From: a phage
Strand: one strand, 5' to 3'
Sequence record: PX645697.1
DNA length: 64,000 nucleotides
In this document: one piece after another, positions 27,637 to 58,206 of the stretch
Layout of the letters: each line of letters opens with the position of its first letter
How positions within the stretch are numbered: the stretch's first letter is position 1
The notes under the pieces: generated by a model
Databases searched by the model: none
What the model was told of the DNA's origin: nothing
The model's input: the letters and a program-made list of their open reading frames with translations, nothing else
Made by a program: the position numbers and the translations under genes

Positions 27637-27921
27637 TTAACCTTTTGGGAATGGCATTAAAGATTCCATAGCAGTCTTAATTTCACTATTGATTCGTGAA
27701 TCACGGTAAGAGATAAACTTACCTTTGCTGTCACGTAACATCACATGGGTTCTGGATGTTTTGTGAGGGAGCAATGTGATACTGGTTGGGATAGTGTCAA
27801 CCCCTGCAAGATATGTGTCAATAGTCTTGCTTTCAGTCAACAGATAAGACCAAGTACGCGGTTTCTGCTCCGGGCGGTTGGGGTATGTGTCTCGAATCTG
27901 AACCATAGCTAACTTATTCAT
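27637..27921 (-). CDS. hypothetical protein, paralog of 27923..28174
   Basis: Shared C-terminal ...GKFISY...FPKG pattern. Confidence 0.4.
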   Translation of the reverse strand: MNKLAMVQIRDTYPNRPEQKPRTWSYLLTESKTIDTYLAGVDTIPTSITLLPHKTSRTHVMLRDSKGKFISYRDSRINSEIKTAMESLMPFPKG

Positions 27922-27922
27922 A

Positions 27923-28174
27923 TTAAACTCCTTTAGGGAATGGGATGAGGTTTTCTACTGCAACACGGAATTCTTTCTCTACATCTTTATTCTTGTAGGA
28001 AATGAACTTCCCATCAGCACCACGGAGGATTACGTTAGTACGAGCTGTTTTTGGATTATGACTAATCTGGTTTGCAATAATATTAGCAATGCCGTGGTTA
28101 TTGGTAAATTTCCATTTAACCATACGATTGTTAGACATTACATCAATGATATTTACAGATTTTACAATAGACAT
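27923..28174 (-). CDS. hypothetical protein, paralog of 27637..27921
   Basis: Shared C-terminal ...GKFISY...NLIPFPKG pattern. Confidence 0.4.
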   Translation of the reverse strand: MSIVKSVNIIDVMSNNRMVKWKFTNNHGIANIIANQISHNPKTARTNVILRGADGKFISYKNKDVEKEFRVAVENLIPFPKGV

Positions 28175-28987: not shown

Positions 28988-29727
28988 TTCTCTTGTCCTT
29001 TTTCCATTGCTTTAACAATAGCTTTACAGAAACCAGAACGAACAATGTCATCTGATTCGCCATCTACTATCTCAGCGAACTCATACAGATCATGTTCATC
29101 AATAAAGTTAGTAGCCCAAGTAAGACCACTCTCACGACCACGCATATCATGCTGGTTAGTATCACCCATGCAGAACAGCTGAGAGGTCTCTCCCAATCGA
29201 GTCATGATTGAGAAGGCTTCATCTTTAGTGGTGTTCTGGAACTCATCTACGATAACAATAGCATCGTTGAAAGAACGACCACGGAGATACTCCAGAGGTA
29301 CGAACTCAATATTACTGTTACCGAGCTGGCATTCATAGAACCCTTTACCATATCGCTGAGTAATAACATCAATGATAGGCATCAAATATGGTTCAAACTT
29401 CTCACGCATCCCTCCCGGAAGCAACCCAAGAGAATTACCCATGCCGACCGAAGGGCGACTCAGGATAATCTTCTGAATCTTACCACTCTTCAGTGCATCG
29501 ATAACCGTGGAAGTGATTACAAAGGTCTTACCACAGCCCGCAGGAGCGTCTGTGAACACAACTTGTTTAGTCTTAATAGCATTGAGTAGCTCAGACTGAA
29601 ACTGGTTCTGAGGGACTACAGGCTTTGCTAAAACCACCTCTTCATACTCTCGCTTACCTTTACGAGTAACAAGTGCTTCCCGACGAAGGTCTTTCCGTGA
29701 TTCTTTCCGTGATTGACGACGACTCAT
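28984..29727 (-). CDS. phoH: PhoH-like ATPase
   Basis: Walker A DAPAGCGKTF and Walker B VIVDEFQN in PhoH-type arrangement. Confidence 0.7.
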   Translation of the reverse strand: MSRRQSRKESRKDLRREALVTRKGKREYEEVVLAKPVVPQNQFQSELLNAIKTKQVVFTDAPAGCGKTFVITSTVIDALKSGKIQKIILSRPSVGMGNSLGLLPGGMREKFEPYLMPIIDVITQRYGKGFYECQLGNSNIEFVPLEYLRGRSFNDAIVIVDEFQNTTKDEAFSIMTRLGETSQLFCMGDTNQHDMRGRESGLTWATNFIDEHDLYEFAEIVDGESDDIVRSGFCKAIVKAMEKGQEK

Positions 29728-29921
29728 TTACGCTCTCCAATTTCTTCGTAATGACACTCAGTGGTTAAACAATCTTTACAGATTGCTGTGTAAACCCTGA
29801 CGTTAGTAAATCGTTTGTTCTTCCCTTTGGTTGGAGAGCCTTTGGCAAGCTCTCTGATAACCTTGTTACTTAAATGAAGGTTTGTTCCTTCACATCTAGA
29901 GCACTTCACCACAATGTCCAT
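29724..29921 (-). CDS. small zinc-ribbon protein
   Basis: CSRCEG...CKDC Cys pairs. Confidence 0.35.
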   Translation of the reverse strand: MDIVVKCSRCEGTNLHLSNKVIRELAKGSPTKGKNKRFTNVRVYTAICKDCLTTECHYEEIGERK

Positions 29922-30106
29922 TCAGTAAGAGACCACAGAGAGTCACCTATGTGGGCATTGTCATTCCTGATGAGGTCTTTGATTTTATCAACATCAGTCA
30001 AGTGAGTCACATTCAAAATATCCTCAACATCCGGGGCATATTTAAATATGGCAACAATACTGTTGCGATCTTCAGCGTATCTTTCTAGAACATAAACTAC
30101 GCTCAT
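29906..30106 (-). CDS. hypothetical protein
   Basis: Track ORF. Confidence 0.35.
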   Translation of the reverse strand: MSVVYVLERYAEDRNSIVAIFKYAPDVEDILNVTHLTDVDKIKDLIRNDNAHIGDSLWSLTEWTLW

Positions 30107-30426
30107 GCGAAGTTAACCTCTTTATGAAGTCTGTAAACAGCCGTCGCCATACAAGCAACAGCTTCGTTATGTGGGAGATGCATCCCTGTAGAACCATCCC
30201 AATCTTTGAACTCATTGTCAAAGACTCCGGTAGGCTCTGGATACAAGGCTTGCAACTCAACCAAATCGTTAGCAACTTGTTGCCATTTATCATCAGACCA
30301 GATAGGGTCATCCAACCAGTAATACAAATAGGAATGGATGATCAATTGCCTTCTATGCCGATTGATTACTTCAGCGGGACTTATCTCACTTCCGTTTGAA
30401 GTCCTAAATGTATTACCGTCGATCAT
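30103..30426 (-). CDS. hypothetical protein
   Basis: Track ORF. Confidence 0.35.
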   Translation of the reverse strand: MIDGNTFRTSNGSEISPAEVINRHRRQLIIHSYLYYWLDDPIWSDDKWQQVANDLVELQALYPEPTGVFDNEFKDWDGSTGMHLPHNEAVACMATAVYRLHKEVNFA

Positions 30427-30629
30427 TATGAAAATTTCCGTTCTGTTAAAAAGTATATAACTTCATTATCTGGAGACCGAACTTTCTCTCCATTTACTAA
30501 TTTCTTAGCATCTTCATATGAAGTACAATCCAAAGCAGGGTTATCAGGTGTTGGCTTCCCTAGGAAATATTTCCAAGTCCAACGCTCTCCGTCATCGTCT
30601 TGGCAGTCAAGAGTCCACAAAGTTTTCAT
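30426..30629 (-). CDS. hypothetical protein
   Basis: Track ORF. Confidence 0.35.
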   Translation of the reverse strand: MKTLWTLDCQDDDGERWTWKYFLGKPTPDNPALDCTSYEDAKKLVNGEKVRSPDNEVIYFLTERKFS

Positions 30630-30811
30630 TTCACAACCTTAAATTTGAATGTTGTTGGGTGATAATAGTGCAACCTATTAATAGTGTGCTTTGTTTCAAG
30701 ATATATCCTACAGGAGTGGCACATAACATGAGACAAACTAGTCACAGGATTGGGCTTAAAATTGATGATAGGCTTCTCTTTCTTACAGAAGCTACAGACT
30801 TTCTTTTCCAT
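30626..30811 (-). CDS. small zinc-ribbon protein
   Basis: Trimmed to ATG 30811; CSFCKK...CHSCR. Confidence 0.3.
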   Translation of the reverse strand: MEKKVCSFCKKEKPIINFKPNPVTSLSHVMCHSCRIYLETKHTINRLHYYHPTTFKFKVVK

Positions 30812-31025
30812 CTTTTCTCCAGTGGTCAACGAACTGCTGAAACACTTTACGGTCAAATGTGAAATTACGAGCAATTCCGCATTCTCTAAAAGTGGCAGGC
30901 ATATAATCTACATCACCTTCAGATGTATGACCATAGACTTGAATAAGCTTCTTAATCTTATCCTTCTCTCTTCGAGGAAGCATTCTAAATGCCTCCTGAA
31001 TATCTGTAATATGTTTTATCTTCAT
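30792..31025 (-). CDS. hypothetical protein
   Basis: Track ORF. Confidence 0.35.
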   Translation of the reverse strand: MKIKHITDIQEAFRMLPRREKDKIKKLIQVYGHTSEGDVDYMPATFRECGIARNFTFDRKVFQQFVDHWRKDGKESL

Positions 31026-31037
31026 CAGAAATTCCTG

Positions 31038-31169
31038 CTAATCCTCTGAGTTGTGGGAACAGCAATATTCACATACTCCACAACAAGGGCAAATTTCTAC
31101 ACTTGGGTCATATGCATCATCAACTGTCATCCCACACTTGGTGCAGAACACATCATCATCTTCTTCCAA
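31038..31169 (-). CDS. candidate Cys-rich small protein, 43 aa (TTG start, not in track)
   Basis: Hand translation ...EEDDDVFCTKCGMTVDDAYDPSVEICPCCGVCEYCCSHNSED; begins 3 nt after thyX stop. Confidence 0.25.
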   Translation of the reverse strand: MEEDDDVFCTKCGMTVDDAYDPSVEICPCCGVCEYCCSHNSED

Positions 31170-33004: not shown

Positions 33005-33190
33005 TTATAGCATACAAAGAATAATAACAAGAGGTAGTGTTATAGCAAAATGTACCAGAACAACACTACCTAGCTTGATAGCTTTAACATCCTCTTCTGC
33101 TGGGTTTTCTTTAATTGCTAAATTTCGAGCTTTATATATAACAGTACCAACTATTAACGACCACACGGCCCACACAATCAGTGAAATCAT
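33005..33190 (-). CDS. small two-TM membrane protein
   Basis: Track ORF; MISLIVWAVWSLIVGTVIY... paralogous to the adjacent untracked ORF. Confidence 0.45.
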   Translation of the reverse strand: MISLIVWAVWSLIVGTVIYKARNLAIKENPAEEDVKAIKLGSVVLVHFAITLPLVIILCML

Positions 33191-33199
33191 ATCAAATCC

Positions 33200-33379
33200 T
33201 TATGCAGTCAGGAGGTGAAGCAGGAATGGGATAACAACAGCTACGATAACCATGATAGTTGATGCTGTTTGAATCTCACCTTTCTTATCAGGGGTTTCTT
33301 CAATAAGCTTACCAGAAGCCCAATAAATACCACCACCAATAAAGATAGCCCAAATACCCCATACGATTGCTGATAACAT
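33200..33379 (-). CDS. small two-TM membrane protein, 59 aa (not in track), paralog of 33005..33190
   Basis: Hand translation MLSAIVWGIWAIFIGGGIYWASGKLIEETPDKKGEIQTASTIMVIVAVVIPFLLHLLTA. Confidence 0.45.
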   Translation of the reverse strand: MLSAIVWGIWAIFIGGGIYWASGKLIEETPDKKGEIQTASTIMVIVAVVIPFLLHLLTA

Positions 33380-34398: not shown

Positions 34399-34608
34399 TC
34401 AGTAGTAAATTACTTTAGACATAAAAGAACCAGTGTTAGGGTCTTCATACCAGCGATGTATGTCAGCGCTTTTTACTATTGTGCCCAGAGTCTTCAACTG
34501 TTTCTTAGCAATACGAGCCTCTTTGCGAGTGTCAAACAATTTGATGCTATCTTTTCTCATATGTTGCTCAAGATCCCAAACAACATGAATAGCCCACATC
34601 TTTTTCAT
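34399..34608 (-). CDS. small protein, KEARR-KK paralog family
   Basis: MKKMW...TRKEARIAKK...VIYY. Confidence 0.45.
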   Translation of the reverse strand: MKKMWAIHVVWDLEQHMRKDSIKLFDTRKEARIAKKQLKTLGTIVKSADIHRWYEDPNTGSFMSKVIYY

Positions 34609-34823
34609 TAGTAATGTACCTTTCCGCTGATATAAATACGGCCTGAGGTATACTCATAGCCCTTGAGAATCTTAATAGAGATAAGATATCCAGTGTGTAA
34701 TTCACTGAACGATTTCTTAAGCCTACGTGCATCTTCTCGTGTTTTCTGGTAGGCCATGGTCACCCCCCCACTTGTCCACTCTGTCTTAACTAACCAAATT
34801 CTTTTCATAAGACCTGCCCTCAT
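34608..34823 (-). CDS. small protein, KEARR-KK paralog family
   Basis: ...TREDARRLKK...KVHY. Confidence 0.45.
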   Translation of the reverse strand: MRAGLMKRIWLVKTEWTSGGVTMAYQKTREDARRLKKSFSELHTGYLISIKILKGYEYTSGRIYISGKVHY

Positions 34824-35035
34824 TAGTAGTACACCTTGCTTCCAGCCATGAACGCCCCTGTCGAGCTTATCATGGCTTTGCTGATAGTAACTTTCTTACA
34901 CCGTAAACATACCTTCCAGTTCTTTTTACAGATTCGAGCTTCTTGTCGAGTGTTACAAAAAATAGCCGAAGATATTTCTTGGGTGTTGTTATCATAAACA
35001 CGAACACACCACTTTTTCATTGTTCCAAACTCCAC
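34823..35035 (-). CDS. small protein, KEARR-KK paralog family
   Basis: ...TRQEARICKK...KVYY. Confidence 0.45.
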   Translation of the reverse strand: MEFGTMKKWCVRVYDNNTQEISSAIFCNTRQEARICKKNWKVCLRCKKVTISKAMISSTGAFMAGSKVYY

Positions 35036-35226
35036 TATCTGTCAACCGATTCAGGGACAAACTGCATTACACAGACCTGATTACGAGGAAGGTTTATTTC
35101 ACAAGCGGTTTTTCTATCAGCAACCTTAGATGACGAGTTAGGGCCAATTTGAGCCATCATTAATCCCATAGCTAACATGCCGAGGATTACACCAATTGCT
35201 AGAGATGCTACAGTTTCTTGTTTCAT
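35035..35226 (-). CDS. small membrane protein
   Basis: Hydrophobic segment ASLAIGVILGMLAMGLMMAQI. Confidence 0.35.
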   Translation of the reverse strand: MKQETVASLAIGVILGMLAMGLMMAQIGPNSSSKVADRKTACEINLPRNQVCVMQFVPESVDR

Positions 35227-35241
35227 ATCGGATACACTCTA

Positions 35242-35490
35242 TCAGTAATATATCTTTTCATTGATAACCAAAGTGTCGTAATTCTCTGTCTGAGAGTGGA
35301 CCGCTTTGTGAATAGTAGCTACTACATCAACAGCATCTTTAAAGCGTCGATAATGGTTTATGGTTACTTTTTTGAGACGTCTAGCCTCCTCTCTTGAGGG
35401 AAGCTGAGTTTTTAGAACAGTGATTTTACCTGTTGAAATCTTGGTAATCACAACTTTCAGTGCCCAACAATCCAGAGCAGCCTTTTTCAT
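35242..35490 (-). CDS. small protein, KEARR-KK paralog family
   Basis: ...SREEARRLKK...KIYY. Confidence 0.45.
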   Translation of the reverse strand: MKKAALDCWALKVVITKISTGKITVLKTQLPSREEARRLKKVTINHYRRFKDAVDVVATIHKAVHSQTENYDTLVINEKIYY

Positions 35491-52041: not shown

Positions 52042-52593
52042 ACATCCTCCAATTAATTGTTAAAACTATCAGGGGAGCACACTAGCTCTGGGCCACGCTG
52101 TAGACATCGGCCTACCTTCCACAGCTAATCAGCTAATGTACTCTCCTAATAGTTTATGAATAGGGGGAGGGGACGAATCCTCCCTTATCCTATTAATTAG
52201 TGTTGCATGTAAGATCTAACAATCGGTTGCCTTTGTAGGAATAAGCGTAAAGCTAATCCAGCACTAAACTCCCGCCCCCTTAGTGGGCTGGGTTATTAAA
52301 GGGTAACGCCCTTATGGGCTAGTTACGTGAATGTTAGTTTGATAGGAGATCTGAAGTCCTATCTCAAAGGACTCTCGTAAGAATCCTTCACGATAGTCAC
52401 GCTTTGAGCGTGGTACAGATTAATGTTGCATGACGTTGATTATATAACTCAAAATATCGAGGCTTTCTCCAATCTCGATCTCTCATAAAGGATTGTAGGA
52501 TGAAATGTCTATCACATCCCAGCCATTCCGATACATCTATAGCTAACCTGATTGGAGACCCTCTAAACTCTCTTCGCTCCACACTAACCTCTA

Positions 52594-52767
52594 TTAGCAA
52601 GACTCATCACAAGGTTGATCACCACATGTTTTACAAATCACGGGTGAATAACTACAGGCAGGATACACTGACACACCATCAAACGTCTCACACCCACAAT
52701 CAGGGCATGTACCGTTGGATTCCATGTCATCATCATCATATACTTCACCGCCACCATAACAGCTCAT
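52594..52767 (-). CDS. small Cys-rich zinc-ribbon protein, 57 aa (not in track)
   Basis: Hand translation MSCYGGGEVYDDDDMESNGTCPDCGCETFDGVSVYPACSYSPVICKTCGDQPCDESC; AAGGAG 6 nt upstream. Confidence 0.45.
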   Translation of the reverse strand: MSCYGGGEVYDDDDMESNGTCPDCGCETFDGVSVYPACSYSPVICKTCGDQPCDESC

Positions 52768-52776
52768 ATGAACTCC

Positions 52777-52998
52777 TTAGTAAACTAAACCTATAGCCTT
52801 TGCATCAGGCTGAGGGACTACTTTTGCACTAGGGCGATAGCCATCCACTGAGCCATTCCAAAGATTGACACAGGTGATATACCCATCGTTCAAGTAGTCT
52901 GTTTTAATCCAGAAGTGTTTATCGTGACCAAAAATACTTCCGTTTGGCAGTGTGGACAGTTCAACAGTTTTAAGTGACTGCTTAGAGTCTAGTTTCAT
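52777..52998 (-). CDS. small protein, early-region paralog family
   Basis: ...STLPNGSIFGHDKHFWIKTD... Confidence 0.4.
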   Translation of the reverse strand: MKLDSKQSLKTVELSTLPNGSIFGHDKHFWIKTDYLNDGYITCVNLWNGSVDGYRPSAKVVPQPDAKAIGLVY

Positions 52999-53005
52999 AA
53001 TAACC

Positions 53006-53254
53006 TCAATTATCGTAGCATGTATTCCAATACATGTAGTTAACGTACGTTCTCGGTTTGATTCCGTACATGATGAAGTGAGTCTTCTTGATCCTTTCCT
53101 TCAGCGTGTAATAAAGGCCATCACTGAAGTTACCAACCTTTACTTGGAAGCGTAAGGAGCGAGCATCCATTCGAAGCATGGAAATTAGCTGTACCCTACT
53201 ACCTCCAGCCATCTCTTCAAGAAGCTTCTTTGTATTCCAATAATGAGCTGTCAT
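53006..53254 (-). CDS. hypothetical protein
   Basis: Track ORF. Confidence 0.35.
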   Translation of the reverse strand: MTAHYWNTKKLLEEMAGGSRVQLISMLRMDARSLRFQVKVGNFSDGLYYTLKERIKKTHFIMYGIKPRTYVNYMYWNTCYDN

Positions 53255-53255
53255 A

Positions 53256-53543
53256 TTACCACTCCTTACCGGTTGTTGTTACAGAACCACCACACCACTG
53301 CGCATCGGATAAGGTTTTAGTCTCCTCATCTACTGCTGCACCATTCAGGCATGAGATACCACTGTAACGCATATCAATTTCACCAGAAGGAACCTTCTCG
53401 CCCTTATGCCAGCGAGATACGCAAACACCTTCCACTGCTACTGCACACCATCCATCAGGACGGCTCTGTACGCAGCCTGTAAGGGCTATGCAGACGATGA
53501 AGATACAGATTAAGGATATTACACCACCCCAACTCATAACCAC
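53256..53543 (-). CDS. lipoprotein candidate
   Basis: Signal-like N-terminus ending in lipobox ALTGC. Confidence 0.4.
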   Translation of the reverse strand: MVMSWGGVISLICIFIVCIALTGCVQSRPDGWCAVAVEGVCVSRWHKGEKVPSGEIDMRYSGISCLNGAAVDEETKTLSDAQWCGGSVTTTGKEW

Positions 53544-53642
53544 CTCTCATTCAATTTGGCGCACCGTGGAGGATTCTAACCTCCAACCAATTTCTTAGAA
53601 GGAAACTGCTCTATACAATTGAGCTAACGGCGCTGGATTTGT

Positions 53643-53957
53643 TTACAAGGAGAAGGACTTCTTGCAATCTTTCTCTTCAAAAGTGTAGTAGCCCGTTGCA
53701 TCAGGGAAGTAGGCATACTTTATTTCTTTGCCATCTACAGCCATGATACGATTACCAGAGGTCGTTTCAACAAACAGAAGCCCATCTCTTACCATACCGT
53801 GAGCTTCTTTAATATCAGTTAAGCTGTGTTCTTTAAGGACACATTGCTGGACACTCTGATACTTAACCCCAATCTCTGCACTGTTAACAGAGACAATACC
53901 AATGGTTGTCATCAGCATCAAGGTTGATATGATAAAATGCTTCTGCTTCACGTTCAC
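53643..53957 (-). CDS. secreted/periplasmic protein candidate
   Basis: N-terminal signal-like segment FIISTLMLMTTIGIVSVNSA. Confidence 0.4.
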   Translation of the reverse strand: MNVKQKHFIISTLMLMTTIGIVSVNSAEIGVKYQSVQQCVLKEHSLTDIKEAHGMVRDGLLFVETTSGNRIMAVDGKEIKYAYFPDATGYYTFEEKDCKKSFSL

Positions 53958-53964
53958 CTCTTAT

Positions 53965-54174
53965 TTAACTGAAAATATGCAAGGCCACATCATGACCGAT
54001 ATGACCGGGAACTTTATGCTGTTCTATTTTCAAACAGAGTTTACAGACACGAGATACACGAGACTCTTTCGCTTCAACTGGAGTGTCTGTAGCGTGAGTG
54101 ATATGTAGGTTTTCAGTGATCACCCACTCGTGTTTACATCCAGAATCTTCGGGCTTTTTCTTACGAAAGAACAT
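53965..54174 (-). CDS. hypothetical small protein
   Basis: Track ORF. Confidence 0.3.
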   Translation of the reverse strand: MFFRKKKPEDSGCKHEWVITENLHITHATDTPVEAKESRVSRVCKLCLKIEQHKVPGHIGHDVALHIFS

Positions 54175-54182
54175 AACACCCC

Positions 54183-54344
54183 TTAGATTATGTCACGATG
54201 ACTAACTTCACCACACACCTTACACTGGATAATGTAACGTGTGCCCTTGTCATTGTTTCCATCTGAATCTGTATAGACCAGAGGGCGAGTATTAATAATC
54301 TTCCAATCATGACAATGAAAGACACGCTTTAGCCACTTGAACAT
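54183..54344 (-). CDS. small zinc-ribbon protein
   Basis: Track ORF trimmed to ATG 54344; HCHDW...CKVCG. Confidence 0.3.
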   Translation of the reverse strand: MFKWLKRVFHCHDWKIINTRPLVYTDSDGNNDKGTRYIIQCKVCGEVSHRDII

Positions 54345-54351
54345 ATTAACC

Positions 54352-54603
54352 TCAAGCACAAGCAGGGAGAGTGATGATTTTATACTTGCCTTCAAACTCT
54401 CCAAATAAACCCAAGAATGTAGGACTGTAAGTACCAGTACAAACAAACTCATCAAACAGTGCGTTATAGCTAGGCTTAATCTTCCAAGCCCATACATAAC
54501 CCATCTTGTCAATTGCAATGTAACGAGTGTTCAGAGGAACAGTCATCATCACATCATCAACTTCGATCACTTTAGTGATTGGTGCAGCTTGGAAGTTTTT
54601 CAT
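54352..54603 (-). CDS. hypothetical protein
   Basis: Track ORF; start overlaps stop of upstream small gene. Confidence 0.4.
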   Translation of the reverse strand: MKNFQAAPITKVIEVDDVMMTVPLNTRYIAIDKMGYVWAWKIKPSYNALFDEFVCTGTYSPTFLGLFGEFEGKYKIITLPACA

Positions 54604-54776
54604 ACTTTACCTTTAATAAAAATGTCATTACCACAGACACAGCATGAACGAACAACAGTAGCGCCACGCTGAACGATGCGAACCTCTTCTTTAACCAGAT
54701 TGACACGAGCACCACAGCAAGGAGAGTTGACATAAGAGTAACCGGCTTGTGTATTCTTGATTGTTTGCTTAGACAT
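54600..54776 (-). CDS. small zinc-ribbon protein, 58 aa (not in track)
   Basis: Hand translation MSKQTIKNTQAGYSYVNSPCCGARVNLVKEEVRIVQRGATVVRSCCVCGNDIFIKGKV; stop TGA overlaps next ATG. Confidence 0.45.
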   Translation of the reverse strand: MSKQTIKNTQAGYSYVNSPCCGARVNLVKEEVRIVQRGATVVRSCCVCGNDIFIKGKV

Positions 54777-54820
54777 TTGAGCTTCCTCTTGTTAGTTTAA
54801 GTAAGAGCTGTCCCTTAATT

Positions 54821-54849
54821 AAAACAACAAAGGCCACCCGAAGGCAGCC
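54821..54849 (-). terminator. rho-independent terminator
   Basis: Minus-strand GGCUGCC-uucg-GGUGGCC (two G-U pairs) followed by UUUGUUGUUUU. Confidence 0.45.
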
Positions 54850-55247
54850 CTTTATTAAATCAGTTATTGTAAACCCAACCACCTTGACGTTTACGGATGT
54901 TACCCATCAGACGCAGCATGGCAGATTCAATCTTCAGAGCACCATTTGTTACTGCATCCATACGTTCAGGGCGGTTCATACGTTTGGTTGATACTTTCAT
55001 ACACATCTCTCTTTGTTAGTGGAGGCATTATTGCCAGTTGATATAAGGGATAGCCCTAGTCAGGAGGCTAATTCTGACCGCGCACTCATTGCCGACCTTC
55101 TCTGCCTAAGAGTTCAGGTTCTAGAGCTATCTCTTATCCCAACTGGTGAAGACTCCCTACCCCTAGGAAGTCTCCTGAATCCCAAACCAATATGTACCCC
55201 TACATATCGGAAATCTTTCGAAAATTAACAGGTTTTAGTCTAGCACC

Positions 55248-55357: not shown

Positions 55358-55576
55358 TTACTTTTGAGTCACATGAAGATCAGGGCGAGGTGTAACAGTG
55401 GTGCCACCCTTAAAAAGACCAACATAACCAGTACGAAGATTGGCTGCTTTATGTGAACCATTATTTGCTACCTCTTCAAGCAGCAACCAGAACCGGCTAT
55501 CATAAAAGAAAACCGACCCACTTTCTAGATCACATATTTTTGAAAACTTAAGAGGTTTACCTTCATTGATTTCCAT
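55358..55576 (-). CDS. small protein, early-region paralog family
   Basis: ...ICDLESGSVFFYDSRFWLLLEE... Confidence 0.4.
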   Translation of the reverse strand: MEINEGKPLKFSKICDLESGSVFFYDSRFWLLLEEVANNGSHKAANLRTGYVGLFKGGTTVTPRPDLHVTQK

Positions 55577-55834
55577 TTACTTACCTTTATTAGTAATAAC
55601 AACATCATGAAGCACAACAGCAGGGAGGTTGGAGTTGAGTTTCATAACCTGATTGGTATTTAAACTCAGAACCGTGCACCCTTCATCGCGAGGCTTAGTC
55701 TCTGTCACATGTGGTGTGAAGAGTTGTACAATCATGTAATAATCGATACATGTTGACTTTACTTGGAACACATCACCAAGTTTCAAATCACCTACACACA
55801 ACTTATTAACCTTAGGATTAAGATCAATCTTCAT
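55577..55834 (-). CDS. small protein, early-region paralog family
   Basis: ...VGDLKLGDVFQVKSTCIDYYMIV... Confidence 0.4.
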   Translation of the reverse strand: MKIDLNPKVNKLCVGDLKLGDVFQVKSTCIDYYMIVQLFTPHVTETKPRDEGCTVLSLNTNQVMKLNSNLPAVVLHDVVITNKGK

Positions 55835-56084
55835 CTTTAGCCTCGATGTTAGTTATGTGGAGATCGTTGCGCACTTGGCAGACTTCATCACGATTAATAG
55901 GGATGAGTTTTCCAGTGACTACATCAACGCAGTTCACATAATTATCTGCATATAAAGAATCGGTTCGAATATAAAGGAACCCTTTAGACTCAAAGAGAAC
56001 CCCCGGCTTCATGTTATTTAAGCGAAGCATTGTACGGTTAGGTTTAATATTAACCTTCACTGTTAATCTCCTGCTGCTTAGCAA
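55824..56084 (-). CDS. small protein, early-region paralog family
   Basis: ...LNNMKPGVLFESKGFLYIRTD... Confidence 0.4.
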   Translation of the reverse strand: MLSSRRLTVKVNIKPNRTMLRLNNMKPGVLFESKGFLYIRTDSLYADNYVNCVDVVTGKLIPINRDEVCQVRNDLHITNIEAKDED

Positions 56085-56346
56085 TAGCTACTCGCAAGTC
56101 TTCATTAGCACGAGCAAGGCGCAACACTTCGTGGTTGAGGCTCTGAAGACGTTTGTTTCTGTCCTCAACTTGCATAATAAGATCGTTAAGAATCACTTTA
56201 ACTTTCTCATTATACATCTCATCCACTCGGACTAGGGATTTATACATTCTCTCCCAGCTTGCTGCTTTGTTTCTTAGAATAATAAATCCTATAACGCTGA
56301 TAGTTAAACAGCTTACAAAAAGGAATTTATATACTTCTAAAGTCAT
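56050..56346 (-). CDS. membrane protein with N-terminal TM and coiled coil
   Basis: FLFVSCLTISVIGFIIL followed by charged helical region. Confidence 0.35.
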   Translation of the reverse strand: MTLEVYKFLFVSCLTISVIGFIILRNKAASWERMYKSLVRVDEMYNEKVKVILNDLIMQVEDRNKRLQSLNHEVLRLARANEDLRVAIAKQQEINSEG

Positions 56347-56545
56347 ATTATTTACCCTTTATCAGAGATTAAAAGTAATATTATTTAAGTAAGTTATATT
56401 TAGTAAACTTATTTTCTAAGAAATTTTCAAAGGGTCTATATACAGAGCATTACCCATAGTCCCAGAATACTACCATCTTTTTCAATAAATTTACTAAGTG
56501 GTTGGTTTATAAAGGAATTTAGTTTGTCAAATCTGGCACTAGTGA

Positions 56546-56935
56546 CTATTCCCTAGAGCTATTATCGAACACTAAATCACCACAATACATAGGATTGGCA
56601 TACCATTTTGGCACCCCTTCGCTCTTACTCTGAAAGTAAGTCCCACTATACAGCGGAACATAATTCTTCTTAAGGGCACGTTTAGCCAGCCGCTCGCTTT
56701 CTCCAATGGCTTGCTTAGTCATTGGATTTTTATCACGAATCAGCTTTACATAACGTTTATAAGGTTTCTCCTGTTTTAATAGTACCGGAATCCACTCAAA
56801 CTGGTTCTTTTGTCTTATCACCTGTTCAGCGGTCAGTTTTCGTTGGGCCATTCTATTTATCACGGTATCCGCAACTAAAGCTTTACATGCGGTTGGCTGG
56901 TTCCCTGCCTCATAATAAATAGTCAATGTCAACAT
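56546..56935 (-). CDS. cell-wall hydrolase, SleB/CwlJ-like
   Basis: TIYYEAGNQPTACKALVADTVINRMAQ...QFEWIP resembles the SleB-type hydrolase core. Confidence 0.45.
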   Translation of the reverse strand: MLTLTIYYEAGNQPTACKALVADTVINRMAQRKLTAEQVIRQKNQFEWIPVLLKQEKPYKRYVKLIRDKNPMTKQAIGESERLAKRALKKNYVPLYSGTYFQSKSEGVPKWYANPMYCGDLVFDNSSRE

Positions 56936-56984
56936 TAGCTGTGCCGTTGTTATCAGAACTTGATACCTCCTGTTTTACGGGCAT

Positions 56985-57010
56985 AAAAAAGCCCCAGCCG
57001 TAGCCGGGGC
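56985..57010 (-). terminator. rho-independent terminator
   Basis: Minus-strand GCCCC-10 nt loop-GGGGC followed by UUUUUU. Confidence 0.5.
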
Positions 57011-57262
57011 GGTTATTAACGTGATACTGCTTCCATGAATCCTATCATAAGTATCAATAAGGTGATAATAACACCAAAAAGCATACCACATAGGAAGAAA
57101 GATCCACCTTCCCCTAGATATGAAATAGCTGATTCCACGGATAACTCCTACAGCAACGCAAAAAGCCGCTCAAAGGCGGCTATGCGGAAGCTTCAAATGG
57201 GGAGAGGGCACGACGCGACAGAAAGAGCGTCATAGTACTAAAAGAGGGGGCTGTATTCCCTA

Positions 57263-57775: not shown

Positions 57776-57985
57776 TTAATCGAGTAAACTAAATGACTTC
57801 CAACTACGTAGCAGGATTGTACCATCATCCATAGCTACGCATAACTTTAACAGTTTCTTGTTAGCACTACTTACCGTTGTAATTCGTCCAGTTGTACATT
57901 TACCTTTGTTGCTATAAAGGTATACAACACGACGGCCTAACAGTCGGGAAGGAGCTTTCTTAAATTCTGAAATGTTAGTGATCAT
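57776..57985 (-). CDS. hypothetical small protein
   Basis: Track ORF. Confidence 0.35.
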   Translation of the reverse strand: MITNISEFKKAPSRLLGRRVVYLYSNKGKCTTGRITTVSSANKKLLKLCVAMDDGTILLRSWKSFSLLD

Positions 57986-58206
57986 AATGCTTGATACCTT
58001 TGAATGTGTTCGATACGGGTGGATTGAGCAAATGACGCTTTAACAGCCATTTTCCTAACTTCTTCCTTACGTTGGTTGGCGTGTATAGTATCCCAATGGT
58101 TGTTATCACGTTGGCGCTGTAATATCTTACTACACTTGCGATGGTTTCCCGTGCTGCGATGTTTCTCACAAATAGGACACTTGCCAAAAGTATTACTGAA
58201 TATCAT
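57982..58206 (-). CDS. small zinc-finger protein
   Basis: CPICEKH...H..C pattern. Confidence 0.3.
   Translation of the reverse strand: MIFSNTFGKCPICEKHRSTGNHRKCSKILQRQRDNNHWDTIHANQRKEEVRKMAVKASFAQSTRIEHIQRYQAL

Follow-up and report, generated by a model that had tools for sequence, protein, structure and literature searches.

Two short, conserved cysteine-rich genes in the leftward early block of a Kuravirus

Are two cysteine-rich reading frames of fewer than 60 aa, read leftward in a phage genome, genuine genes, and are their products the zinc ribbons that a first-pass annotation took them for? The window, by which we mean the whole 64,000-nt stretch of record PX645697.1 that was analysed, belongs to a Kuravirus, a phiEco32/SU10-like podophage of E. 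coli, and shares about 90% DNA identity with Kuravirus genomes. The two frames, here called ORF-A and ORF-B, had been described as genes missed by the ORF track, with strong Shine-Dalgarno (SD) sites and translational coupling, and had been assigned to the zinc-ribbon micro-proteins, with which phages were said often to bind the host's RNA polymerase or nucleases. Both frames exist at the positions and on the strand reported. We think it likely that they are genuine, translated Kuravirus early genes whose products have metal-held folds and binding roles of the kind proposed below. As genes, they are ordinary and already known from existing catalogues.

Coding evidence and expression signals

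ORF-A (52594..52767, minus strand) encodes a 57-aa protein, MSCYGGGEVYDDDDMESNGTCPDCGCETFDGVSVYPACSYSPVICKTCGDQPCDESC, with a net charge of -11 and nine Cys, eight of which are conserved. It is the homolog of phi32_103 and SU10_0101 and is, per residue, the most acidic product within the window. ORF-B (54600..54776, minus strand) encodes a basic protein of 58 aa (net charge +6, pI 9.4) that reads MSKQ...SPCCGA...SCCVCGNDIFIKGKV. Each aligns over its full length to a PHROG profile, ORF-A residues 1-57 to positions 1-56 of 56 in phrog_13157 (E 1.3e-29) and ORF-B residues 1-58 to positions 1-58 of 58 in phrog_18461 (E 1.1e-44). Annotated proteins match ORF-A at up to 98% identity, and both genes keep their genomic position in relatives. 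The ORF-B protein is 100% identical to SU10_0108 and to the orthologs from 30 or more phage records, and was found only on Kuravirus-type contigs of 76-77 kb. All seven relatives examined (WFI101126, Bas91, EcoN5, XT18, SU10, KBNP1711 and 4E8) carry both genes as annotated CDSs ("hypothetical protein"). The genes had thus not been overlooked at large; they were absent from the ORF track because its cutoff was 60 aa. Such a cutoff hides real phage genes under strong selection, and ORF-A, which is left out of a few GenBank records, has also been dropped by some GenBank pipelines.

Comparison with five to six relatives gave 66 synonymous and 24 non-synonymous changes in ORF-A (pooled pN/pS 0.089) and 43 and 3 in ORF-B (pooled pN/pS 0.021); these comparisons, like those behind all pN/pS values given here, are among close relatives and are not phylogenetically independent. 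An independent greedy gene caller chose both frames, whose codon-usage scores are positive. A 98-aa plus-strand ORF over ORF-A (52500..52796) is spurious, as first supposed, because its frame acquires one or two stop codons in the relatives L007 and L001; it also carries many non-conservative changes in other relatives and was passed over by the coding-potential caller. From these comparisons of sequence, we conclude that ORF-A and ORF-B are real, strongly conserved genes.

An AAGGAG SD sequence (52773..52778, minus strand) precedes ORF-A at 5 nt from the ATG, rather than the 6 nt first given, and the preceding gene ends in a TAA (52779..52777) that includes the first two bases of the site. 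ORF-B has a purine-rich SD region, AAGAGGAAG (54782..54790, minus strand), of the GAGG/AGGA type 7-8 nt upstream, which an RBS scan scored as AGGA at spacing 7. At its end, ORF-B runs into the start codon of the gene that follows: its TGA and that ATG form an ATGA (54600..54603, minus strand, read from 54603 to 54600), in agreement with the first-pass annotation, and in this phage the overlap would couple ORF-B translationally to a conserved hypothetical gene of 83 aa (54352..54603, minus strand; pN/pS 0.136). The partner in this overlap is not constant: in SU10, XT18 and KBNP1711, a 225-nt gene separates ORF-B from the homolog of the 83-aa gene, and a different gene therefore follows ORF-B. 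The SD sites and the ATGA overlap are real, but features of this kind are common in this genome, as is tight packing of genes. A rough gene caller found 72 small genes (<=100 aa) in the window, and 13 of the 103 adjacent gene pairs overlap by 4 nt; SD matches of at least 6 nt occur at only 8 of 104 minus-strand genes, ORF-A among them. Directly upstream of ORF-B, a pattern scan located a terminator-like GC-rich hairpin with a T-tract (54829..54852, minus strand), and terminators are annotated at matching positions in WFI101126 and 4E8. A consensus scan detected no sigma-70-like promoter between this hairpin and ORF-B.

The early genes of SU10 are CDS 69-125 (PMC4281155), and the early block is thought to serve host takeover (PMC8948821). 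By synteny with SU10_0101 and SU10_0108, ORF-A and ORF-B sit in the leftward early block, their early class being taken from those studies of related phages (PMC4281155; PMC8948821). The block, including both genes, would be transcribed by host sigma-70 RNA polymerase.

Cysteine patterns and the case for metal-held folds

A search of 1.84 billion representatives places ORF-A in a family of at least 186 clusters (E <= 1e-3). Members are stand-alone, extremely acidic proteins of 50-60 aa (median net charge -8) in which the eight Cys are 93-100% conserved, and in 130 of 143 short members the C-terminal residue is itself a Cys. The C-terminal module follows the pattern C-x6-C-x2-C-x4-C-x3-C with rigid spacings, and the two CPxCG-like knuckles, CPDCG (C21-x2-C24) and CKTCG (C45-x2-C48), are 97-100% conserved. 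Four members lack C3, C21 and C24 jointly and retain the five C-terminal Cys. Since the loss of C3 takes C21/C24 with it but spares C45/C48, the two knuckles may well lie in different sites. The Cys pattern thus suggests two metal sites and not a single ribbon, with an invariant C-terminal module forming one putative site and an accessory N-terminal C...CxxC triad the other.

Both ORF-A and ORF-B are too small for a hydrophobic core, and their folds are therefore most likely held by metal; the conserved Cys of both proteins would bind it, and the metal would probably be zinc. The candidate ligands of ORF-B, C20, C21, C45 and C48, do not vary even in sequences that share only 59% identity. Its first knuckle is formed by the adjacent C20-C21 within SPCCG, not by a CxxC, and the second is C45-x2-C48-G, so that ORF-B lacks the pair of CxxC knuckles by which a zinc ribbon is recognized. 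The best AF2 model of ORF-B (pLDDT 77.8) has a hairpin-knuckle-helix-hairpin-knuckle topology, and the BFVD model of an ortholog superposes on it with a TM of 0.98. ORF-B is restricted to Kuraviruses, and its ribbon-like, two-hairpin fold is a prediction of moderate confidence. For ORF-A, AF2 run on an alignment of 11 sequences gave a pLDDT of 52 and an unusable model.

The CPxCG-like knuckles of ORF-A and the location of both genes in an early block to which a role in host takeover has been ascribed (PMC8948821) lend something to the first-pass reading, in which the two proteins would be zinc ribbons of the classical single-site type, with host RNA polymerase or host nucleases as binding partners. 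Profile searches against PDB sequences (alignments of 11 and 60 ORF-A and 9 ORF-B sequences) returned only chance-level matches to generic ribbons. The best for ORF-A pairs its N-terminal half with the L37Ae ribbon (E about 0.02-0.03), and the ORF-B profile matched the ribbon of RPA12, a TFIIS-like RNA polymerase subunit (E 0.21); both are sub-significant. All candidate Cys-rich ORFs stayed below threshold in Pfam, NCBIfam and PADLOC scans; no Pfam or NCBIfam ribbon model reached its cutoff, and ORF-A itself drew no Pfam match. For 67 members of the ORF-A family, Pfam gave scattered matches that were all sub-threshold, and PADLOC likewise had no match above threshold. A classical single-site ribbon is also at odds with the eight conserved Cys of ORF-A, with the co-loss that pairs C21/C24 with C3 and not with C45/C48, and with the CC knuckle of ORF-B. 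The proposed targets fare no better: none of our searches tied either protein to RNA polymerase or nucleases, and the phiEco32 RNA polymerase-binding protein that has already been characterised, gp79, is distinct from both (PMC8948821). We regard this reading as unlikely.

It also seems doubtful that ORF-A binds an iron-sulfur cluster instead of zinc, although eight conserved Cys, strong acidity and a rigid C-x2-C-x4-C-x3-C spacing would suit such a cofactor, and the chance-level matches include Fe-S and haem proteins (Alternative Complex III subunit B, E 0.66; cytochrome c7). An acidic, eight-Cys protein of about 55 aa recalls what we take to be the features of small ferredoxins, and C-x6-C-x2-C-x4-C presumably bears a loose likeness to the WhiB-like C-Xn-C-X2-C-X5-C. 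However, the canonical Fe-S signatures (CxxCxxCxxxCP, CxxxCxxC) do not fit the ORF-A motif, knuckles of the CPxCG kind typically belong to zinc or rubredoxin-type sites, and no Fe-S Pfam family matches more than one of the 67 family members.

Homologs of ORF-A occur in Grimontviridae, in Zobellviridae and in one Roseobacter phage, and the Cys keep their positions without exception even between unrelated phage families. In plasmid and bacterial-genome searches the family was nearly absent from bacterial genomes, with one phage-plasmid-like match and one partial match in a metagenome-assembled genome. Judged by these searches, the family is widespread and restricted to phages, in which it spans several viral families. 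Its genomic contexts are arrays of small phage genes, and no recurrent neighbour gene was found in the non-Kuravirus contexts. A domain-fusion search covered seven longer matches. P0112, P0113 and P0170 hold the full eight-Cys module at the C-terminus behind unrelated N-terminal extensions, and P0136 has a partial module at its N-terminus; the remaining three are CxxC-repeat false positives. No hint of function was found in the seven. 

Small size, high Cys content and the usual terminal Cys of the ORF-A family might also point to precursors of Cys-rich peptides that are modified or secreted (toxins of a RiPP-like or disulfide-rich kind). This we consider very improbable: neither protein has a signal peptide or is built as leader and core, the contexts examined have no recurrent modifying enzyme (radical SAM, cyclase, protease), and the genes nearby are small early phage genes as well. 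A reading of the two as frames open by chance, or as non-coding sequence whose Cys codons reflect composition, is effectively refuted by the many synonymous changes at a pN/pS of 0.02-0.09, the ORF-A Cys invariant across unrelated phage families, the 186 clusters, the full-length PHROG matches and the antisense frame broken in relatives, even though both frames are under 60 aa, the antisense frame is also open in the window, and the homologs gp101 and gp108 were not detected in SU10 proteomics.

Other Cys/His mini-proteins in the window

The five further ORFs listed in the first-pass annotation, four Cys-pair mini-proteins and a 43-aa candidate, all exist, and the impression of a window rich in such mini-proteins, several of them independent, is borne out. 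Of the 72 small genes, 4 have a pair of strict CxxC motifs separated by 10 residues or more, where within-protein shuffling expects 0.44; 4 was reached in none of 2000 shuffles. Where diverged relatives existed, the Cys/His ligands of these proteins are retained at 42-58% identity.

All lie on the minus strand. The basic mini-protein at 29724..29921 (61-65 aa, phrog_14369) has two conserved CxxC pairs, its four Cys being kept at 57% identity; its translation probably begins at the GTG at 29909, with a PHROG match that spans residues 5-65 and a CDS of 186 nt in Bas90. At 30626..30811, a basic protein of 61 aa (phrog_15951) has conserved CSFC and CHSC pairs, with the Cys kept at 58% identity. 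The very acidic 43-aa peptide at 31038..31169 has eight Cys (phrog_16989; a 135-nt CDS in Bas90) and starts at a TTG 2 nt past the ThyX stop, with a GGAG 8 nt upstream. The name zinc ribbon is not supported for the other two either. The 53-aa protein at 54183..54344 (phrog_8294; pN/pS 0.149) conserves H10-x-H12 and C41-x2-C44; Cys11 varies, leaving H10/H12 as the first conserved ligand pair, which corrects the Cys-pair reading to HxH...CxxC. The 74-aa basic protein at 57982..58206 (phrog_6887) carries an N-terminal CCHC knuckle, C10-x2-C13-x8-H22-x2-C25, whose ligands are kept at 42% identity in phage SU7. 

One mini-protein was missing from the earlier list, a 69-aa product at 53965..54174 (minus strand, phrog_13426) with C13-x-H15 and C44-x2-C47 (pN/pS 0.182; the relatives compared were all close). 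Paralogy among the Cys-rich ORFs, or of ORF-A with the acidic peptide at 31038, was considered and rejected.

Proposed roles and comparison with known systems

If, as we favour, ORF-A and ORF-B are early genes with metal-held folds, their charge, size and genomic position lead us to propose binding roles. ORF-A would be a compact acidic binding module and act as a decoy towards some host protein with a basic or nucleic-acid-binding surface. ORF-B would bind nucleic acid or an acidic protein surface. A more specific proposal, which we offer as a long shot, is that the ORF-A family represents a new two-metal-site fold acting as an early anti-defence decoy, and is a candidate restriction inhibitor of the Gordonclarkvirinae, which are reported to resist restriction-modification systems without a known inhibitor (PMC11990801). 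A literature search found no characterised member of the family and no toxicity screen of Kuravirus early genes, and the family has no Pfam model or solved structure. It is now sharply defined by its eight Cys, rigid C-terminal spacing, C-terminal Cys, acidity and restriction to phages, which makes it a small, modestly interesting experimental target in a phage group with unexplained restriction resistance (PMC11990801).

ORF-A and ORF-B are the same genes as those catalogued under phrog_13157 (phi32_103, SU10_0101) and phrog_18461 (SU10_0108), families without an assigned function. Their similarities to classical ribbons and rubredoxin-knuckle mini-proteins (L37Ae, RpoP, LysW, ZitP and the archaeal CPxCG micro-proteins) are all sub-significant. 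In ORF-A the ligands number eight, and the place of the fourth Cys of L37Ae is taken by a conserved Ser; ORF-B differs from the classical ribbons in having CC in place of CxxC at the first knuckle. The Lar and DksA-TraR C4 zinc fingers (PF14354, PF01258) are small zinc-binding proteins of phages and prophages whose action is directed at the host's restriction or RNA polymerase. The protein at 30626..30811 matched Lar below threshold (E 0.014), and sub-threshold matches to Lar or DksA-TraR occur in one or two of the 67 ORF-A family members; these matches are sporadic, lie far under the gathering cutoffs and involve the CxxC knuckles only.

Small acidic phage decoys that mimic DNA or block host enzymes include T7 Ocr, T4 Arn, PBS2 Ugi and phi29 p56. 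To our knowledge, the known acidic mimics are neither Cys-rich nor metal-dependent, and we found no sequence or structural similarity of ORF-A to them and no PADLOC or anti-defence match. What ORF-A has in common with these four proteins is its general character, since it is likewise very small, extremely acidic, stand-alone and of the early class.

Small early genes ORF-A and ORF-B

Both Cys-rich ORFs proposed in the first-pass annotation exist, on the strand and at the positions assigned to them: ORF-A (57 aa) at 52594..52767(-) and ORF-B (58 aa) at 54600..54776(-). Each was picked independently by a gene caller based on codon usage and ribosome binding sites, for which the 27 ORFs of at least 200 aa in the window served as the training set. 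The sequence directly 5´ of the ORF-A ATG reads TAAGGAGTTCAT; the AAGGAG Shine-Dalgarno (SD) sequence (52778..52773(-)) has a 5-nt spacer to the ATG and is fused to the TAA stop of the upstream gene. SD matches of at least 6 nt were found for only 8/104 minus-strand genes, ORF-A among them. ORF-B comes next after a terminator-like hairpin (54852..54829(-)), carries the purine tract AAGAGGAAG 5 nt ahead of its ATG, and ends in an ATGA stop/start overlap with an 83-aa gene (54352..54603(-)). This overlap reflects how tightly the operon is packed and does not mark a dedicated pair of genes: 13 of the 103 adjacent gene pairs share a 4-nt overlap, 33 overlap to some extent, and the gene 3´ of ORF-B in SU10, XT18 and KBNP1711 is a different one, 225 nt long.

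Comparison with five or six relatives gave 66 synonymous versus 24 non-synonymous differences for ORF-A (pooled pN/pS 0.089) and 43 versus 3 for ORF-B (pN/pS 0.021), the pN/pS of accepted genes nearby being 0.06-0.27; these comparisons are pairwise and phylogenetically non-independent, but the direction of the result for both ORFs is nevertheless clear. A plus-strand 98-aa ORF lying over ORF-A has stop codons in two relatives and is therefore spurious. Neither the ORF-A nor the ORF-B protein was detected in SU10 proteomics.

The two genes had been described as missed. However, both are annotated CDSs (174-177 nt for ORF-A, 177-180 nt for ORF-B) in WFI101126, Bas91, EcoN5, XT18, SU10, KBNP1711 and 4E8, with the WFI101126 counterparts recorded as similar to phi32_103 (ORF-A) and identical to SU10_0108 (ORF-B). 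By tblastn, 89 phage records contain ORF-A and 73 contain ORF-B, the latter at ≥99% identity in 30. PHROG matches were obtained for all eight small ORFs searched, the seven listed previously and an added one at 53965..54174; seven cover their profile end to end, and seven of the families are labeled "unknown function." Thus, the 60-aa cutoff of the ORF track alone explains the absence of ORF-A and ORF-B, which are hypothetical proteins catalogued before, and the claim of novelty is overstated. ORF-A is left unannotated in a few GenBank records (NJ01, PGN6866, Pecta and JB8).

Genome setting

Of the 116 phage records hit by a 5-kb query around ORF-A and ORF-B (80-95% identity), nearly all belong to Escherichia phages of the phiEco32/SU10/NJ01 group (genus Kuravirus, subfamily Gordonclarkvirinae). 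From ~18 kb to 64 kb of the window, the genes are on the minus strand, as both GC skew and the ORF map show. CDS 69-125 are early genes according to the SU10 paper, and the early block of phiEco32 is described as holding mostly genes of unassigned role, likely involved in host takeover. Synteny with both phages places ORF-A and ORF-B in this early block, transcribed by host RNA polymerase.

The early operon includes a tRNA-Arg(TCT) gene (53557..53633(-)), located between ORF-A and ORF-B. In Bas91, a homing endonuclease gene directly adjoins the corresponding tRNA, and the ORF-A homolog of Proteus phage Privateer is likewise placed among tRNA genes. The small-gene content between ORF-A and ORF-B (52800..54600) is mosaic across Kuravirus genomes (L001, L002 and L007-L010). 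Three early genes encoding 72-78 aa are paralogous (52777..52998, 55358..55576 and 55824..56060, all (-); BLASTP E 7e-9 and 7e-5), one of them directly upstream of ORF-A. The 93-aa product of 53256..53537(-), whose SU10 counterpart is annotated "putative lipoprotein," has a signal-peptide-like N-terminus, an LTGC lipobox-like motif and seven Cys, and is far more divergent in some relatives (72-76% identity, with gaps). A long gene-poor stretch, 56200..57200, contains strong terminator-like hairpins (57010..56991 and 57181..57164, both (-)) and several sigma-70-like promoter matches on the minus strand, and may be the counterpart of the early promoter/terminator spacer between CDS 120 and 121 described in the SU10 paper.

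Tandem duplicates were also seen elsewhere: 27637..27921/27923..28174(-), with 47% identity, and 33005..33190/33200..33379(-), with 33% identity, the latter looking like small hydrophobic membrane proteins. Several consecutive 65-82-aa ORFs in 34399..35490(-) have a common ...EAR(R)xKK... motif and a Y-Y end, which suggests a further array of tandem paralogs; no BLASTP hit linked them at E ≤ 1e-3. Related records call a 107-aa ORF (30103..30426(-)) "DNA ligase" and a 77-aa ORF (30792..31025(-)) "anti-restriction nuclease"; both are far too short for such enzymes, so these labels probably spread from partial domain matches.

Cys-pair mini-proteins

The window is indeed rich in Cys-pair micro-proteins. 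In a rough set of 72 genes of ≤100 aa, Cys content is 2.5%, versus 1.1% in larger proteins, and four small genes have a pair of strict CxxC motifs separated by 10 or more residues, where within-protein shuffles give 0.44 expected and none of 2000 shuffles reached four. ORF-B is counted too once this definition is loosened. The earlier zinc-ribbon interpretation is partly right: these are mini-proteins with Cys pairs and probably bind metal. The first knuckle of ORF-B is CC instead of CxxC, so its motif does not qualify it as a strict ribbon. Putative ligands are kept in diverged relatives of 29724 (C3/C6/C45/C48, 57% identity), 30626 (C6/C9/C31/C34, 58%) and 57982 (C10/C13/H22/C25, 42%), these ORFs being named by start coordinate; 54183 has the conserved set H10/H12/C41/C44 with a variable Cys11, and in EcoN5 and Bas91 its family is represented by a tandem pair of paralogs. 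No paralogy was found among the window's Cys-pair mini-proteins, and the enrichment therefore stems from independent families. It is real, yet unexceptional in kind. Metal sites are a standard means of stabilizing very short chains. CPxCG-type zinc-finger proteins occur in small proteomes elsewhere too (PMC10117724).

The 43-aa product of 31038..31169(-) has eight Cys and a net charge of -11. Its PHROG match covers no more than the initial third of a longer profile labeled "membrane protein," the source of the "membrane protein / moron" label in Bas90; since the peptide lacks a hydrophobic segment, that label is probably wrong. Kinship with ORF-A was rejected (hmmsearch E = 4).

ORF-B and the ORF-A family

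ORF-B is basic (net +6, pI 9.4), nearly invariant inside Kuravirus and found solely in 76-77 kb Kuravirus-type genomes. C20, C21, C45 and C48 are kept even in the 59%-identical 4E8 homolog, and C46 is replaced by Tyr or Pro in some homologs. The best AF2 model (pLDDT 77.8; the remaining four, 38-52) predicts two hairpins with Cys at the turns and a short helix between. It matches the BFVD model of the MN03 ortholog (TM 0.98); the next matches, two adjacent uncharacterized proteins of the phiEco32-like phage 7-11, have non-significant E-values.

ORF-A, with a net charge of -11 over 57 aa, has the highest acidity per residue of all products in the window. Profile searches, both word-indexed and exhaustive, show that its family comprises 186 or more clusters when grouped at 50% identity. 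Among 143 short representatives (median net charge -8), eight Cys are 93-100% conserved (C3, C21, C24, C38, C45, C48, C53 and C57), alongside G31, S41, P52, D54 and S56, and the last Cys is the C-terminal end in 130. C-terminal Cys spacing is rigid (x6, x2, x4, x3), and four members jointly lack C3, C21 and C24 and retain the five C-terminal Cys. From this co-loss and spacing, we infer an invariant C-terminal metal module with an accessory N-terminal site. Pfam, NCBIfam and PADLOC gave no membership, the family has no solved structure, and an AF2 model from 11 sequences (pLDDT 52) was too poor to use.

The family is represented in Kuravirus, Privateervirus (Grimontviridae), Paundecimvirus (Zobellviridae) and a Roseobacter phage. 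One further member each was found on a metagenomic contig of 340 kb and in a 114-kb Pseudomonas plasmid record, almost all of whose genes are hypothetical and which is probably a phage-plasmid. In every context examined, the homolog lies in a run of small unannotated genes that all point the same way, and no neighbor gene recurs. Only one partial match turned up when genomes of 185,579 species of bacteria and archaea were scanned.

The host RNA polymerase or nuclease binding suggested earlier is unsupported. Both proteins could be metal-stabilized binding modules, with the acidic ORF-A acting as a decoy for a host surface that is basic or binds nucleic acid, and the basic ORF-B binding either nucleic acid or acidic surfaces. 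A candidate anti-restriction role of ORF-A is made testable by the BASEL study, which notes that Gordonclarkvirinae withstand restriction-modification systems although no modification pathway or inhibitor is known for them (PMC11990801). The wider interest is confined to a sharper definition of the ORF-A family. In profile searches, the N-terminal half of ORF-A shows weak similarity to the L37Ae ribbon (E 0.02-0.03), with the position of the fourth L37Ae Cys occupied by the conserved Ser41 in the ORF-A family.
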